Of a DNA stretch of 64,000 bases, positions 20,022 to 53,055 are shown piece by piece. Source of the stretch: Escherichia coli (GTDB lineage: Bacteria > Pseudomonadota > Gammaproteobacteria > Enterobacterales > Enterobacteriaceae). Below the pieces are notes generated by a model. The model was not told the origin of the DNA. It saw nothing but the letters and a program-made list of their open reading frames with translations, and did no database searches. The stretch lies in assembly GCF_051903065.1 (NCBI RefSeq), contig NZ_CP178438.1. One strand, 5' to 3'. Numbering within the stretch: position 1 is the first letter of the stretch; each line of letters begins with the position of its first letter. Position numbers and translations under genes: made by a program.

Positions 20022-21701
<1,680 letters not shown>

Positions 21702-21751: not shown

Positions 21752-22354
21752 TCAGGAGGAGATATTTAACATCATTGCCGCCTGGGTGCGATTTTTCACT
21801 TCCAGACGGCGATACAGGGATTCCAGATGCGCTTTTACCGTTCCGGTACTGATATTCAGCGCTCTGCCGATCTCCTTATTTGATTCGCCCGCCGCTAACA
21901 TGGTTAAAATCTCCCGCTGGCGGGCGCTTAACGATTTGAGATCTTTAATGTCCTTTTCCGGCGTCGTCCGCCAGTCTCCAGGCAGAAACATCATCCCCAT
22001 CGCCGCACTATTTACCGCCAACGCAAATGTCTCGACGGTTGAATCACGAGGCACAATGGCCAGCACATTAAAATGAATAACTTCCTGTAACCACCGTTTA
22101 TTGCAATCCGTCGCCGTGATTAACACCTTAACCTCAGGAAACTGCACCACGGTTTTTTGCAGTAACCAGTAGCAAAACTCACCATCCTGATCGCCATCGA
22201 GCATAACTAAGGCTTCAGGGTAACTTTCCAGCTTTTGCCATAACTCGTCTGCCTGACTGGCCCCCTGAATACTCACTCCTGGAATACGCTGCTGTAAACT
22301 GATTTTCATTCCATGAATAAATATTGACTGCCTGTCAAACATGACTATTTGCAT
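21752..22354 (-). CDS. yhjB: LuxR/FixJ-family response-regulator-like protein YhjB
   Basis: 200 aa; C-terminal LuxR-type HTH (EILTMLAAGESNKEIGRALNISTGTVKAH). Confidence 0.85.
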   Translation of the reverse strand: MQIVMFDRQSIFIHGMKISLQQRIPGVSIQGASQADELWQKLESYPEALVMLDGDQDGEFCYWLLQKTVVQFPEVKVLITATDCNKRWLQEVIHFNVLAIVPRDSTVETFALAVNSAAMGMMFLPGDWRTTPEKDIKDLKSLSARQREILTMLAAGESNKEIGRALNISTGTVKAHLESLYRRLEVKNRTQAAMMLNISS

Positions 22355-22518
22355 AACTGAATCTCCACCTGAATACGTTAAAAAGACTTAAGTAGTGGAA
22401 GGGTATTACCCGCGAGAAAAAATAAGAATTCGCCATTTGGCGGTGGCCATTCTACAGAGATGACGCGTAGAAAATAGTTACCGATATAAATAGTTACAGC
22501 TAAACGCCTGAAATTACA

Positions 22519-22527
22519 TGTCGAGGG
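22519..22527. repeat. Target-site duplication TGTCGAGGG (left flank of IS)
   Basis: Identical 9-mer directly flanks both ends of the IS (also at 23585-23593). Confidence 0.8.
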
Positions 22528-23584
22528 GGCTTTGTTGAATAAATCAGATTTCGGGTAAGTCTCCCCCGTAGCGGGTTGTGTTTTCAGGCAATACGCACGC
22601 TTTCAGGCATACCTGCTTTCGTCATTTTGTTCAGCGCTCGTACCAGGGCCATAGCCTCTGCAACCTGACCATCGTAGTCACGCAGTGTCAGTGAACCCCC
22701 GAACAGCTGTTTTACCCGGTACATCGCCGTTTCCGCTATCGAGCGACGGTTGTAATCTGTTGTCCATTTCCACCGCGCATTACTCCCGGTCATTCGCTGA
22801 TTAGCCACTGCACGGTTACGGTCTGCATATTCACCGGGCCAGTAACCCGCACCTTTTCGGGGAGGGATAAGCGCGCTGATTTTCTTACGCCGCAGTTCAT
22901 CGTGACATAGCCGGGTATCGTAAGCGCCATCGGCGGCGGCTGACCTGATTTTCCGGTGGGTTTGCCGGATTAACCCGGGGAAGGCCTCTGAGTCCGTAAC
23001 GTTGTTCAGCGACAGGTCAGCGCAGATGATTTCATGTGTTTTACTGTCAACGGCGAGATGCAGCTTACGCCAGATACGGCGGCGTTCCTGGCCATGCTTT
23101 TTGACTTTCCACTCGCCTTCACCGAAGACCTTCAGCCCGGTGGAATCAATTACCAGGTGTGCGATTTCACCCCGGGTGGGCGTTTTGAAACTGACATTAA
23201 CCGACTTTGCCCGCCTGCTGACACAGCTGTAATCCGGGCAGCGTAGCGGAACGTTCATCAGAGAAAAAATGGAATCAATAAAGCCCTGCGCAGCGCGCAG
23301 GGTCAGCCTGAATACGCGTTTAATGACCAGCACAGTCGTGATGGCAAGGTCAGAATAGCGCTGAGGTCTGCCTCGTGAAGAAGGTGTTGCTGACTCATAC
23401 CAGGCCTGAATAGCTTCATCATCCAGCCAGAAAGTTATGGAGCCACGGTTGATGAGGGCTTTATTGTAGGTGGGCCAGTTGGTGATTTTGAACTTTTGCT
23501 TTGCCACGGAACGGTCTGCGTTGTCGGGAAGATACGTGATCTGATCCTTCAACTCAGCAAAAGTTCGATTTATTCAACAAAGCC
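22528..23584 (-). mobile_element. IS903-group (IS5 family) insertion sequence, complete, 1057 bp
   Basis: Terminal 18-bp inverted repeats GGCTTTGTTGAATAAATC at both ends; single transposase ORF; 9-bp direct duplication of the target; length and IR match my recollection of IS903/IS102. Confidence 0.85.
22584..23507 (-). CDS. IS903-type DDE transposase
   Basis: 307 aa from a GTG start (VAKQKFKITNW...); the track's 322-aa version starts at an upstream TTG; exact start uncertain. Confidence 0.8.
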   Translation of the reverse strand: MAKQKFKITNWPTYNKALINRGSITFWLDDEAIQAWYESATPSSRGRPQRYSDLAITTVLVIKRVFRLTLRAAQGFIDSIFSLMNVPLRCPDYSCVSRRAKSVNVSFKTPTRGEIAHLVIDSTGLKVFGEGEWKVKKHGQERRRIWRKLHLAVDSKTHEIICADLSLNNVTDSEAFPGLIRQTHRKIRSAAADGAYDTRLCHDELRRKKISALIPPRKGAGYWPGEYADRNRAVANQRMTGSNARWKWTTDYNRRSIAETAMYRVKQLFGGSLTLRDYDGQVAEAMALVRALNKMTKAGMPESVRIA

Positions 23585-23593
23585 TGTCGAGGG
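23585..23593. repeat. Target-site duplication TGTCGAGGG (right flank of IS)
   Basis: Perfect copy of the 9-mer at 22519-22527. Confidence 0.8.
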
Positions 23594-23939
23594 CACTATT
23601 TAAAACAATTTTGAGGATTTCCTTATATTGGTGGTTAGTACGCATGCAATTAAAAATGAAATTCCGCGACCACAAGCCAAAATAACAAATGGCAATGAGA
23701 CAAAAATAAGCACAAATAGCCAATACGTCCTCTATTCACTTTAAAGGGAATCGCTGAAAAATACGCTCTGTTTAAGGGGATTTACCTTTCTCAGAAAGCT
23801 ATTCCGCCCTTTTCCTGCTGAGAAATCGCCACATTCGTCATGACAACATTGTGAAACCCGGCATTAGATGTTAGAAAAAACAATAAACAATGCGATATGC
23901 GCGTTACTGTTTCGCTGTGAACAACAATCGGTCAAAGAA

Positions 23940-24839
23940 ATGGATAAAATTCACGCAATGCAGTTGTTCATCAAAGTCGCGGAGCTGGAAAGTTTTTCCC
24001 GCGCAGCGGATTTCTTTGCTTTGCCAAAGGGAAGTGTTTCGCGCCAGATACAGGCACTGGAACATCAACTTGGCACCCAGCTTCTCCAGCGCACCACGCG
24101 ACGGGTCAAACTCACGCCAGAAGGCATGACCTATTATCAACGGGCAAAAGATGTGTTGAGTAATCTCAACGAACTGGACGGTCTGTTTCAACAGGATGCC
24201 ACCAGTATCAGCGGTAAATTACGCATCGACATCCCGCCAGGAATCGCGAAAAGCCTGTTACTGCCGCGCCTGTCGGAATTTCTCTATCTGCATCCGGGAA
24301 TTGAGCTGGAACTGAGTAGCCATGACCGTCCGGTAGATATTCTTCATGATGGTTTTGATTGCGTGATACGCACTGGCGCGTTACCGGAAGATGGCGTTAT
24401 CGCCCGTCCCCTCGGCAAACTGACCATGGTCAACTGTGCCAGTCCGCACTATCTGACGCGCTTTGGTTATCCGCAAAGCCCCGATGATCTGACTTCACAC
24501 GCAATAGTGCGTTATACACCGCACCTGGGTGTACATCCGTTAGGTTTTGAGGTTGCCAGCGTTAATGGCGTCCAGTGGTTTAAGTCTGGCGGCATGTTGA
24601 CGGTAAACAGTAGCGAAAACTATCTCGCCGCCGGTCTTGCCGGTCTGGGGATTATTCAGATCCCGCGCATTGCCGTGCGCGAAGCCCTGCGTGCCGGGCG
24701 GCTTATTGAAGTGTTGCCAGGCTACCGTGCCGAGCCGCTCTCCCTTTCGCTGGTTTATCCGCAGCGTCGGGAGCTTTCCCGGCGTGTAAACCTGTTTATG
24801 CAGTGGCTGGCTGGCGCAATGAAAGAGTACCTGGACTGA
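23940..24839 (+). CDS. yhjC: LysR-family transcriptional regulator YhjC
   Basis: About 299 aa from MDKIHAMQLFIKVAELESFSRAA (LysR HTH); the ORF's upstream extension is rejected. Confidence 0.85.
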   Translation: MDKIHAMQLFIKVAELESFSRAADFFALPKGSVSRQIQALEHQLGTQLLQRTTRRVKLTPEGMTYYQRAKDVLSNLNELDGLFQQDATSISGKLRIDIPPGIAKSLLLPRLSEFLYLHPGIELELSSHDRPVDILHDGFDCVIRTGALPEDGVIARPLGKLTMVNCASPHYLTRFGYPQSPDDLTSHAIVRYTPHLGVHPLGFEVASVNGVQWFKSGGMLTVNSSENYLAAGLAGLGIIQIPRIAVREALRAGRLIEVLPGYRAEPLSLSLVYPQRRELSRRVNLFMQWLAGAMKEYLD

Positions 24840-25923: not shown

Positions 25924-26000
25924 ACGCCTTATCCGGCATACGAATTTATTCGGCCTGGCTCCCCGTAGGCCGAATAAGATGCGCCAGCATCGCATCCGGC
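25924..26000. repeat. REP/BIME element
   Basis: Palindromic GCCTTATCCGGC...GTAGGCCGAATAAGATGCGCC...GCATCCGGC units typical of E. coli REP sequences. Confidence 0.6.
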
Positions 26001-49744: not shown

Positions 49745-51420
49745 CTCAATTTACGCAAAATACCGCCATGCCTTCTTCCCTCTGGCAATACTGGCGCGGC
49801 CTTTCCGGCTGGAACTTCTATTTTCTGGTTAAGTTCGGCCTGTTGTGGGCGGGATATCTTAACTTCCATCCGCTCCTCAATTTGGTGTTTGCCGCGTTTC
49901 TGCTGATGCCCATTCCGCGCTACAGCCTGCATCGCTTGCGCCACTGGATTGCCCTGCCGATCGGCTTTGCTTTGTTCTGGCATGACACCTGGTTGCCTGG
50001 CCCGGAAAGCATAATGAGCCAGGGTTCGCAGGTGGCGGGGTTCAGTACCGATTATTTAATCGACCTTGTCACACGCTTTATTAACTGGCAGATGATTGGG
50101 GCCATTTTTGTTTTATTAGTGGCCTGGTTATTCCTGTCACAATGGATTCGCATTACCGTTTTTGTGGTTGCCATTCTGCTGTGGCTGAACGTACTTACCC
50201 TGGCGGGACCAAGTTTCTCCTTGTGGCCAGCCGGTCAACCGACGACCACTGTAACAACGACGGGTGGTAACGCAGCGGCAACCGTTGCGGCGACGGGTGG
50301 CGCACCGGTAGTGGGTGATATGCCCGCACAAACTGCACCGCCAACAACGGCGAACCTTAACGCCTGGCTGAATAATTTCTATAACGCGGAGGCGAAACGT
50401 AAATCGATCTTCCCGTCTTCGCTGCCCGCTGATGCTCAGCCATTTGAACTACTGGTGATTAATATTTGTTCGCTTTCCTGGTCGGATATTGAAGCCGCCG
50501 GGTTGATGTCGCATCCGCTGTGGTCGCATTTCGATATTGAGTTCAAGAACTTTAACTCCGCCACCTCCTACAGTGGCCCGGCGGCGATCCGTTTACTGCG
50601 TGCCAGCTGCGGGCAGACTTCGCACACTAATCTGTATCAACCGGCAAATAACGACTGCTATCTGTTTGATAACCTGTCGAAACTGGGCTTTACCCAGCAC
50701 CTGATGATGGGACATAACGGCCAGTTCGGCGGTTTTTTGAAAGAAGTTCGCGAAAATGGCGGCATGCAGAGCGAATTGATGGATCAAACAAATCTGCCGG
50801 TTATTTTGCTGGGCTTTGATGGTTCGCCGGTTTATGACGATACCGCCGTGCTTAACCGCTGGCTGGACGTTACCGAAAAAGATAAAAACAGCCGTAGTGC
50901 CACGTTCTACAACACGCTTCCACTGAATGACGGCAACCATTATCCGGGCGTCAGCAAAACAGCGGATTACAAAGCGCGGGCGCAGAAATTCTTTGATGAA
51001 CTGGACGCCTTCTTTACTGAACTGGAGAAATCGGGTCGTAAAGTGATGGTGGTCGTGGTGCCGGAACACGGTGGCGCGCTGAAGGGCGACAGAATGCAGG
51101 TATCTGGCCTACGTGATATCCCTAGCCCGTCTATCACCGACGTCCCCGTTGGGGTGAAATTCTTCGGCATGAAGGCACCACATCAGGGGGCACCGATTGT
51201 CATCGACCAACCGAGCAGCTTCCTGGCTATCTCCGATCTGGTGGTTCGCGTTCTTGATGGCAAGATTTTCACCGAAAACAATGTTGACTGGAAAAAACTC
51301 ACCAGTGGGTTGCCACAAACAGCACCGGTCTCCGAGAACTCAAATGCAGTAGTTATTCAATACCAGGATAAACCGTACGTTCGCCTGAACGGCGGCGACT
51401 GGGTGCCTTACCCGCAGTAA
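49741..51420 (+). CDS. bcsG: Cellulose phosphoethanolamine transferase BcsG
   Basis: 559 aa; N-terminal membrane domain, C-terminal sulfatase-like domain. Confidence 0.9.
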
Positions 51421-51425
51421 GCACG

Positions 51426-51456
51426 AAAAAGGCCGCAGAGTTTCACCTCTGCGGCC
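51426..51456 (-). terminator. Rho-independent terminator of ldr copy 1 (also ends bcsG region)
   Basis: Minus strand: GGCCGCAGAG-gtgaaa-CTCTGCGGCC followed by TTTTT. Confidence 0.6.
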
Positions 51457-51506
51457 TGATCCGGGCGCAAATTGCCATTACGGCAGCCTGACGCCCGCAT
51501 GACACG

Positions 51507-51614
51507 TTACTTCCGTTTGTTCAGCCAGTTCACGATCATACTGGCAAGAATGCCAGCAATGACCGGAGCCGCTAAATCATGCCAGAAGGCCATGCCCAGC
51601 TCTGCGAGCGTCAT
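51507..51614 (-). CDS. ldrD: Ldr-family type I toxin peptide, copy 1 (35 aa)
   Basis: MTLAELGMAFWHDLAAPVIAGILASMIVNWLNKRK; one hydrophobic helix with a basic C-terminus, as I recall for the E. coli Ldr toxin family. Confidence 0.8.
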   Translation of the reverse strand: MTLAELGMAFWHDLAAPVIAGILASMIVNWLNKRK

Positions 51615-51662
51615 ATAGCCGCCTGTGTTGTAATGACAACGTTTCGCGGCTATTCTTGTATT

Positions 51663-51728
51663 GTTTGGATGCAAGAATGGCCCCCGTGATGTTGTCAGGT
51701 GCATACCTGCAACGTGCGGGGGTTTTCT
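51663..51728 (+). ncRNA. rdlD: Rdl antisense RNA, copy 1 (approximate)
   Basis: Opposite strand about 50 nt upstream of the ldr ATG; sigma70-like promoter TTGTAA-17-TATTCT at 51628-51656; ends in hairpin CCCCCG...CGGGGG plus TTTT at 51723-51726. Boundaries inferred. Confidence 0.5.
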
Positions 51729-51908
51729 CTCTCCAGCAACCAATACCACCAGGGATTAAGCCCCCGCAACATTGCGCCTCACCGGAACCCTTCCGGCTTG
51801 CCGCTGATTCTACGACTGTTTTTCTGTTCCGGAATCCGTCACGTCTTCACTCTGTGCTGCGCATTCCGCAGAATATTATCCGCTTGCAACCGTTGCATTT
51901 TTCTTACG

Positions 51909-51939
51909 AAAAAGGCCGCAGAGTTTCACCCCTGCGGCC
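51909..51939 (-). terminator. Rho-independent terminator of ldr copy 2
   Basis: Same hairpin plus T-run as copy 1. Confidence 0.6.
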
Positions 51940-51989
51940 TGGTCCGGGCGCAAATTGCCATTACGGCAGCCTGACGCCCGCATGACACG

Positions 51990-52097
51990 TTACTTCCGCT
52001 TGTTCAGCCAGTTCACGATCATACTGGCAAGAATGTCATCAATGACCGGAGACGCTAAATCATGCCAGAAGGCCATGCCCAGCTCTGCGAGCGTCAT
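51990..52097 (-). CDS. Ldr-family toxin peptide, copy 2 (variant, 35 aa)
   Basis: MTLAELGMAFWHDLASPVIDDILASMIVNWLNKRK; differs from copies 1 and 3 at three residues (A to S, A to D, G to D) from four clustered nucleotide changes. Confidence 0.75.
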   Translation of the reverse strand: MTLAELGMAFWHDLASPVIDDILASMIVNWLNKRK

Positions 52098-52145
52098 ATA
52101 GCCGCCTGTGTTGTAATGACAACGTTTCGCGGCTATTCTTGTATT

Positions 52146-52211
52146 GTTTGGATGCAAGAATGGCCCCCGTGATGTTGTCAGGTGCATACCTGCAACGTGC
52201 GGGGGTTTTCT
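52146..52211 (+). ncRNA. Rdl antisense RNA, copy 2 (approximate)
   Basis: Same promoter and terminator-like hairpin as copy 1, shifted by one repeat unit. Confidence 0.45.
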
Positions 52212-52391
52212 CTCTCCAGCAACCAATGCCACCAGGGATTAAGCCCCCGCAACATTGCGCCTCACCGGAATCCTTCCGGCTTGACGCTGATTCTACGACT
52301 GTTTTTCTGTTCCGGAATCCGTCACGTCTTCACTCTGTGCTGCGCATTCCGCAGAATATTATCCGCTTGCAACCGTTGCATTTTTCTTACG

Positions 52392-52422
52392 AAAAAGGCC
52401 GCAGAGTTTCACCCCTGCGGCC
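52392..52422 (-). terminator. Rho-independent terminator of ldr copy 3
   Basis: Same hairpin plus T-run. Confidence 0.6.
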
Positions 52423-52472
52423 TGGTCCGGGCGCAAATTGCCATTACGGCAGCCTGACGCCCGCATGACACG

Positions 52473-52580
52473 TTACTTCCGCTTGTTCAGCCAGTTCACG
52501 ATCATACTGGCAAGAATACCAGCAATGACCGGAGCCGCTAAATCATGCCAGAAGGCCATGCCCAGCTCTGCGAGCGTCAT
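52473..52580 (-). CDS. Ldr-family toxin peptide, copy 3 (35 aa)
   Basis: Peptide identical to copy 1; the 5'-UTR region differs from copies 1 and 2. Confidence 0.8.
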   Translation of the reverse strand: MTLAELGMAFWHDLAAPVIAGILASMIVNWLNKRK

Positions 52581-52628
52581 ATAGCCGCCTGTGTTGTAAT
52601 GGCAACGTTTCGCGGCTATTCTTGAGTG

Positions 52629-52694
52629 GTCTAGGTTCAAGATTAGCCCCCGTGGTGTTGTCAGGTGCATACCTGCAACGTGCGGGGGTTTTCT
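52629..52694 (+). ncRNA. Rdl antisense RNA, copy 3 (approximate, divergent 5' part)
   Basis: Promoter and 3' hairpin conserved, but the first ~25 nt (gagtggtctaggttcaagattagccc) differ from copies 1 and 2 (gtattgtttggatgcaagaatggccc). Confidence 0.45.
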
Positions 52695-53055
52695 CTCTCC
52701 AGCAACCAATGCCACCAGGGTTAAAGCCCCCGCAACATTGCGCCTCACCGGAACCCTTCCGGCTTGCCGCTGATTTTACGATTGCTTTTTACTGTCAGCA
52801 CCCTGCAATCTTCCTCATTGCGTGATGCCTTCCAGCTTAATTTCTTAATTTGCAATAGTTGCAGTTCATATCCGGGCTGACTCCAGACTGGTAGTGAAAT
52901 GCGCAATTTTGTAGAATTGCGCCTCCTCGCGACCTCCCCAGTGAATCTGTTGCCTCATTTTTTACATACTGCGTATTCGACTTCTCCACCTGTTGCGCAA
53001 GAGAAACTGGGTTTATTCATTTTTGCGAGGCCGACTTCTTTCTGGACAGGACTTT

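Follow-up and report, generated by a model that had tools for sequence, protein, structure and literature searches.

An apparently recent IS903B insertion with a 9-bp target duplication in the yhjB-rcdB spacer of a small Escherichia coli clone

The window, by which we mean the whole 64-kb stretch of Escherichia coli DNA that was analysed (64,000 nucleotides), carries a complete insertion sequence in the spacer between two regulator genes, yhjB and rcdB (= yhjC). The coordinates of yhjB follow from its open reading frame and from the annotation of the related genome 23CRST027, while those of rcdB were taken from the same annotation and shifted by +1 for a 1-bp indel, the window reading frame containing the start codon. 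The features of the locus are as follows.

21752-22354, minus strand: yhjB, LuxR-type HTH regulator (WP_001167676.1)
22519-22527: left copy of the 9-bp target-site duplication TGTCGAGGG, identical to 23585-23593
22528-23584, minus strand: complete element of 1057 bp, assigned below to IS903B, the transposase being read leftward, toward yhjB
22528-22545: terminal inverted repeat GGCTTTGTTGAATAAATC at the transposase 3' end, facing yhjB, 18/18 reverse complement of 23567-23584
22584-23552, minus strand: IS5-family DDE transposase gene, an uninterrupted open reading frame and the sole gene of the element
23567-23584: terminal inverted repeat at the transposase 5' end, facing rcdB, 18/18 with 22528-22545
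23585-23593: right copy of the 9-bp target-site duplication TGTCGAGGG, identical to 22519-22527
23839-23856, minus strand: published PhoB ChIP site TTTCACAATGTTGTCATG, with one exact match in the window where none is expected by chance
23940-24839, plus strand: rcdB, LysR-type regulator

A scripted check of the repeat search placed exactly 1057 bp of element between the two 9-bp duplications. Beyond the 18-bp inverted repeats the complementarity of the element ends becomes looser (79% out to 33 nt), and the direct repeat stops at 9 bp with no further extension. When both strands of the 64-kb window are considered, TGTCGAGGG occurs just twice, and these two occurrences are the two flanks of the element; a 9/9 match at two exact junctions has a chance probability of about 4^-9 = 4e-6. 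Apart from the two element ends, the 64-kb window contains no match to the inverted-repeat 18-mer with up to three mismatches allowed, so the element is the single IS903B copy in the 64 kb. Its GC content is 52.7%, compared with 42-43% in the 500-bp flanks. An earlier note on this DNA had described a 1057-bp element with 18-bp terminal inverted repeats, an intact transposase gene and identical flanking 9-mers, about 170 bp from yhjB and about 355 bp from yhjC, and had regarded a lack of the inverted repeats or of the duplication on realignment as grounds for refutation. Both kinds of repeat are present on realignment, the inverted repeats being perfect and the 9-mers identical; the length holds to the base, the reading frame runs without interruption, and the distances were measured as 173 nt and 355 nt.

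Without the interruption, the yhjB-rcdB spacer comprises 519 bp with 38.7% GC. The distance of 173 nt separates the yhjB ATG (22354) from the nearer end of the element, yhjB being co-directional with the transposase gene, and that of 355 nt separates the annotated rcdB ATG (23940) from the other end, rcdB being divergent from the transposase gene. The PhoB ChIP site was assigned by its authors to the yhjB/yhjC intergenic region (PMC10294691), and sigma-S run-off assays gave transcription from a 447-bp probe upstream of yhjB, with no positional resolution (PMC3141248). The native yhjB leader furthermore contains, at 22423-22450 on the minus strand, an inverted repeat GAATGGCCACCGCCAAATGGCGAATTC followed by the T-rich stretch TTATTTTTTC, which falls below the terminator threshold and is found in all E. 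coli.

The 1057-bp element was used as a query against plasmids and 5,426 complete E. coli genomes. Among the matches listed by megablast, at least 19 plasmid copies are 100% identical over 1057/1057 bp, all of them annotated as 'IS5-like element IS903B family transposase', and 100% identical copies were found in about 30 E. coli replicons, chromosomes as well as plasmids, again among the matches listed. Most plasmid-borne relatives among the matches listed share 95-99% identity with the window copy, and 1,993 of the 5,426 complete E. coli genomes match the element. Because of this full-length identity to annotated IS903B copies, the element is, as judged by its nucleotide sequence, IS903B itself, of the IS903 group of the IS5 family, and no mere relative, which narrows the IS903-group assignment made earlier. 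IS903B is described as 1057 bp long with 9-bp direct repeats (PMC10513040), and a 9-bp target duplication is likewise listed for IS903 (PMC2577343, Table 1). Compared with IS903B as annotated by NCBI PGAP (e.g. WP_000654812.1), with which it shares the full sequence, the 18-bp inverted repeats, the 9-bp duplication and the single DDE transposase, the element is no different; just its insertion site is uncommon, being occupied in 2/5,426 complete genomes and in the window. The element had been described before, and an annotation of this very insertion exists in RefSeq. It also resembles the IS903 of Tn903, the experimental prototype of Grindley and Derbyshire, in its architecture, in D121/D193/E259, in the 9-bp duplication and in a partial match to the target motif, whereas IS903B is a sequence variant of that prototype, the likeness being drawn from features. 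The inverted repeats of IS903 are likewise said to be 18 bp long, as attributed to Grindley and Joyce in 1980 and to Oka et al. in 1981.

The transposase comprises 322 aa when read from a TTG codon, which is the start used by PGAP for identical copies, or 307 aa when read from the GTG at 23507. It is matched end to end by the NCBIfam model NF033579 for IS5-family transposases (357 bits; curated cut-off, 140), and also by the Pfam families DDE_Tnp_1_5 (4.6e-39) and DDE_Tnp_1 (8.4e-33). In the 307-aa form, D, D and E occupy positions 121, 193 and 259, which we take to be the catalytic triad positions of IS903 as given by Tavakoli and Derbyshire. Since the reading frame, the DDE triad and the inverted repeats are all intact, the earlier description of the element as possibly still mobile is reasonable, and the window copy possibly has all that is needed to move again. 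Both 23CRST027 and its relative 23CRST031 lack one C at window position 22858, inside the transposase gene (TTTTCGGGG in the window, TTTTGGGG in these two genomes), so that the transposase is frameshifted in both and labelled 'frameshifted' by PGAP. Either both strains carry a genuine inactivating mutation, or the missing C is a base-calling error that they share.

A query consisting of the element and 400 bp on each side was searched against the 5,426 complete E. coli genomes, and matches with at least 80% coverage were kept. Six genomes reached this coverage, and exactly the same insertion is present in two of the 5,426, namely 23CRST027 and 23CRST031, both from human faeces in Ecuador. Over the whole 64-kb window, 23CRST027 differs by eight SNPs and one 1-bp indel and is the best match in the collection (99.986% identical). 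For the empty site, a 791-bp query was reconstructed from the flanks and one 9-mer, and it was found contiguously in 5,401 of the 5,426 genomes; taking out the element together with one 9-mer gives back exactly the sequence that is universal in E. coli. The closely related genome ECNB21-M121 carries a single TGTCGAGGG, and its left (2,900 bp) and right (2,339 bp) flanks match the window with 100% identity. The empty-site string ACATGTCGAGGGCACTATT, which had been predicted from the window beforehand, is found verbatim in M15, AH04 and ECNB21-M121. As the site is empty in 5,401/5,426 genomes and occupied in just 2/5,426, with a relative carrying a single TGTCGAGGG, the insertion is, on these genome comparisons, recent and confined to one small clone, in line with the earlier suggestion of a relatively recent event. 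IS903B is abundant in this lineage, with about 20 matching places in each of the sister genomes. Apart from five genomes that are accounted for here, approximately 17 of 5,423 genomes are without a contiguous yhjB-rcdB spacer, for example S1-CAM-01-A (15% coverage, in two places).

The comparison with relatives brought up further features outside the insertion. Half of the SNPs between the window and 23CRST027 (4/8; positions 52142, 52145, 52148 and 52150) cluster within 9 bp inside one of three tandem repeats of about 480 bp each, which carry Ldr type I toxin genes (~51420-52800), and this clustering suggests gene conversion between the repeats or a difference in repeat polishing. The chuY gene (anaerobilin reductase, heme-uptake cluster; ~3231-3853, plus strand) is frameshifted, with a frame switch after about 110 codons, and is annotated likewise in 23CRST027. 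Besides, ECNB21-M121 has an IS1397 element (IS3 family) directly after yhjD, at approximately window position 25924, which the window is without, and which adds, within 2.5 kb, a further case of an IS that differs between lineages.

We are confident in reading the locus as a simple recent transposition of IS903B into the AT-rich yhjB-rcdB spacer, with an effect on the neighbouring genes that is most likely small or nil. In such an event, the element's own DDE transposase would bind the 18-bp terminal inverted repeats, as is established for the family, and the element ends would be joined to staggered target cuts made 9 bp apart, after which repair of the gaps would give rise to the duplication of TGTCGAGGG. 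The staggered-cut chemistry is that of the family to which IS903 belongs, and it is carried over from there rather than from the window.

The alternative which survives best is that the element alters the expression of yhjB and/or rcdB and has been retained as useful, and this we consider unlikely. Three possible routes can be named: read-through of transposase transcription into yhjB, separation of yhjB from operators close to rcdB, and interference with a spacer silenced by H-NS. Both yhjB and the transposase gene are read from one strand, and a terminator scan revealed no terminator-like site between the transposase stop codon and yhjB, so that read-through into yhjB is possible; the predicted fold of 22355-22600 on the minus strand does not exceed those of shuffled sequences in stability (z = -0.45). 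The PhoB site stays on the rcdB side of the element and, together with all DNA to the right of 23593, is placed 1066 bp farther from yhjB. LysR-type regulators often control a divergent neighbour, and this also counts in favour of a regulatory effect. In addition, RcdB/YhjC has been reported to activate csgD (PMC9068703), so that any effect would plausibly be seen in curli and biofilm formation, and IS903B in a promoter region alters expression elsewhere, as for the -27/-26 insertion at mgrB (PMC10513040).

The promoter scans, however, do not point in this direction. A consensus promoter scan of 22250-24050 returned two sites, compared with 2.4 expected, both of them away from the junctions: the first is internal to the transposase gene, and the second, at 23600-23629 on the plus strand, belongs to native DNA. 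The latter is the sole 9/12 match, begins 7 bp past the duplication and is present in the occupied and the empty state alike. In a relaxed sigma-70 scan, which compared the two states at a threshold of 8/12, no junction-spanning or outward promoter was detected, weak and alternative-sigma promoters being outside the reach of consensus scans. On the rcdB side the 8/12 matches are unchanged, save for one weak empty-state match whose -10 hexamer lies to the left of the insertion point, while the yhjB-facing strand gave no match at 8/12 in either state. The earlier note had hedged that the element may separate either regulator from control sequences upstream or supply an outward-reading promoter; the idea of such an outward promoter, or of a hybrid one, was rejected within the reach of these scans, as the consensus and the relaxed scans found nothing new at the junctions. 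IS903 transposase is weakly transcribed and, in work attributed to Derbyshire and Grindley in 1996, reportedly poorly translated, which likewise speaks against a regulatory effect. Moreover, the PhoB site came with unchanged RNA counts for yhjB/yhjC (252/397 vs 218/408; PMC10294691), the insertion is limited to one tiny clone, and the local IS903B events, which are counted below, are no commoner than chance. Neither yhjB nor rcdB appears in the Shigella TSS tables or in the ROSE supplement.

Two known cases of expression changes by related insertions help to place the present one. The IS903B insertions in mgrB or its promoter in Klebsiella, known from colistin resistance, involve the same element in an intergenic position close to a promoter and flanked by 9-bp direct repeats, whereas there the core promoter was hit at -27/-26 under a selected phenotype, and the window copy is 173 nt and 355 nt away from the start codons (PMC10513040). 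The activation of H-NS-repressed bgl, flhDC and glpFK by IS5 also concerns an IS5-family element in an AT-rich spacer upstream of regulator genes, but IS903B is not IS5, and the yhjB-rcdB locus gives no evidence of activation. We infer that the insertion is most likely neutral for both yhjB and rcdB. If the expression of either gene were changed, the regulation of curli and biofilm could shift, which would add a further case to a well-known class of IS effects.

It may also be considered whether the treF-yhjB-rcdB region is a preferred or selected target of IS903B, given three independent events in the same orientation in unrelated lineages, a proposal to which we give little credence. The reported target preference of IS903 is WTTYA-N9-TRAAW (PMC2577343), and the yhjB-rcdB insertion site agrees with it at 6/10 specified positions (left TTACA 4/5, right CACTA 2/5), the motif being a tendency and not a requirement. 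Such a score is unremarkable, with 8.9% of the window positions scoring at least as high as the insertion site and several 8/10 matches lying in the same spacer, and thus the sequence preference does not explain the exact position. As a reason for the choice of this site, the target motif therefore accounts for little. According to a re-analysis, IS903 insertions concentrate in H-NS-bound DNA, and members of the IS5 family are captured by such DNA (PMC11335895). The AT-rich yhjB-rcdB spacer fits this pattern, H-NS binding there being putative.

The other two local events, which are those of the remaining four of the six genomes, differ from the window insertion in position and in outcome. In M15, an independent IS903B splits treF at window position 21035 with a 9-bp duplication of its own, TTCCCGTTG, and this site scores 2/10 on WTTYA-N9-TRAAW. 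In AH04, AH02 and CT01, a 100% identical IS903B is joined to window positions 21809 and 22368 and replaces 21810-22367, a 558-bp deletion by which nearly all of yhjB is gone; there is no duplication, and the adjoining TGTCGAGGG site is empty. The lack of a duplication suggests an IS-associated adjacent deletion or recombination between two IS copies. All three elements have the same orientation. Within the 3.7-kb neighbourhood, the six clonally related genomes amount to three events, compared with about 3.5 places expected from the 4,732 chromosomal IS903B places in the collection, so there is no excess, and the notion of a hotspot or of selection at the locus was dropped for want of enrichment over the chance expectation. 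Were the region nevertheless preferred or selected, H-NS-mediated capture or selection on the YhjB/RcdB (csgD-curli) node could lie behind it, and the insertion would rewire the expression of yhjB via transposase read-through or uncoupling from the operators on the rcdB side.

Two further explanations can be dismissed with near certainty. Misplacement of IS903B by repeat mis-joining might be suspected in genomes with about 20 IS903B-like places, such as the sisters, since short-read assemblies can misplace repeats of this kind, but a mis-join would not yield a perfect 9-bp duplication of a unique flank, the flanks are otherwise collinear with, and 100% identical to, the empty-site genome ECNB21-M121, and the identical junctions recur in two independent complete assemblies (23CRST027 and 23CRST031), so that the chimeric assembly which the earlier note had kept in view is effectively refuted; with the window as a third independent assembly of this clone and with the duplication, a mis-join is ruled out. 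IS903 forms composite transposons, and the element might thus be one arm of a larger Tn903-like composite or a product of recombination between two IS copies, for which the 558-bp deletion in AH04, AH02 and CT01, associated with IS903B at this very locus and lacking a duplication, could be adduced; against it, the 64 kb contain one copy and two inverted-repeat matches, the duplication directly flanks the single element, and the exact reconstruction of the empty site refutes such an origin.

A simple recent transposition thus remains the reading we prefer for the insertion between yhjB and rcdB. As such, the insertion is a clean clonal marker of the lineage to which 23CRST027 and 23CRST031 belong, and the activity of IS903B in that lineage is shown by it. 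Beyond strain typing its importance is slight, and we regard it as an ordinary strain-level polymorphism of E. coli.
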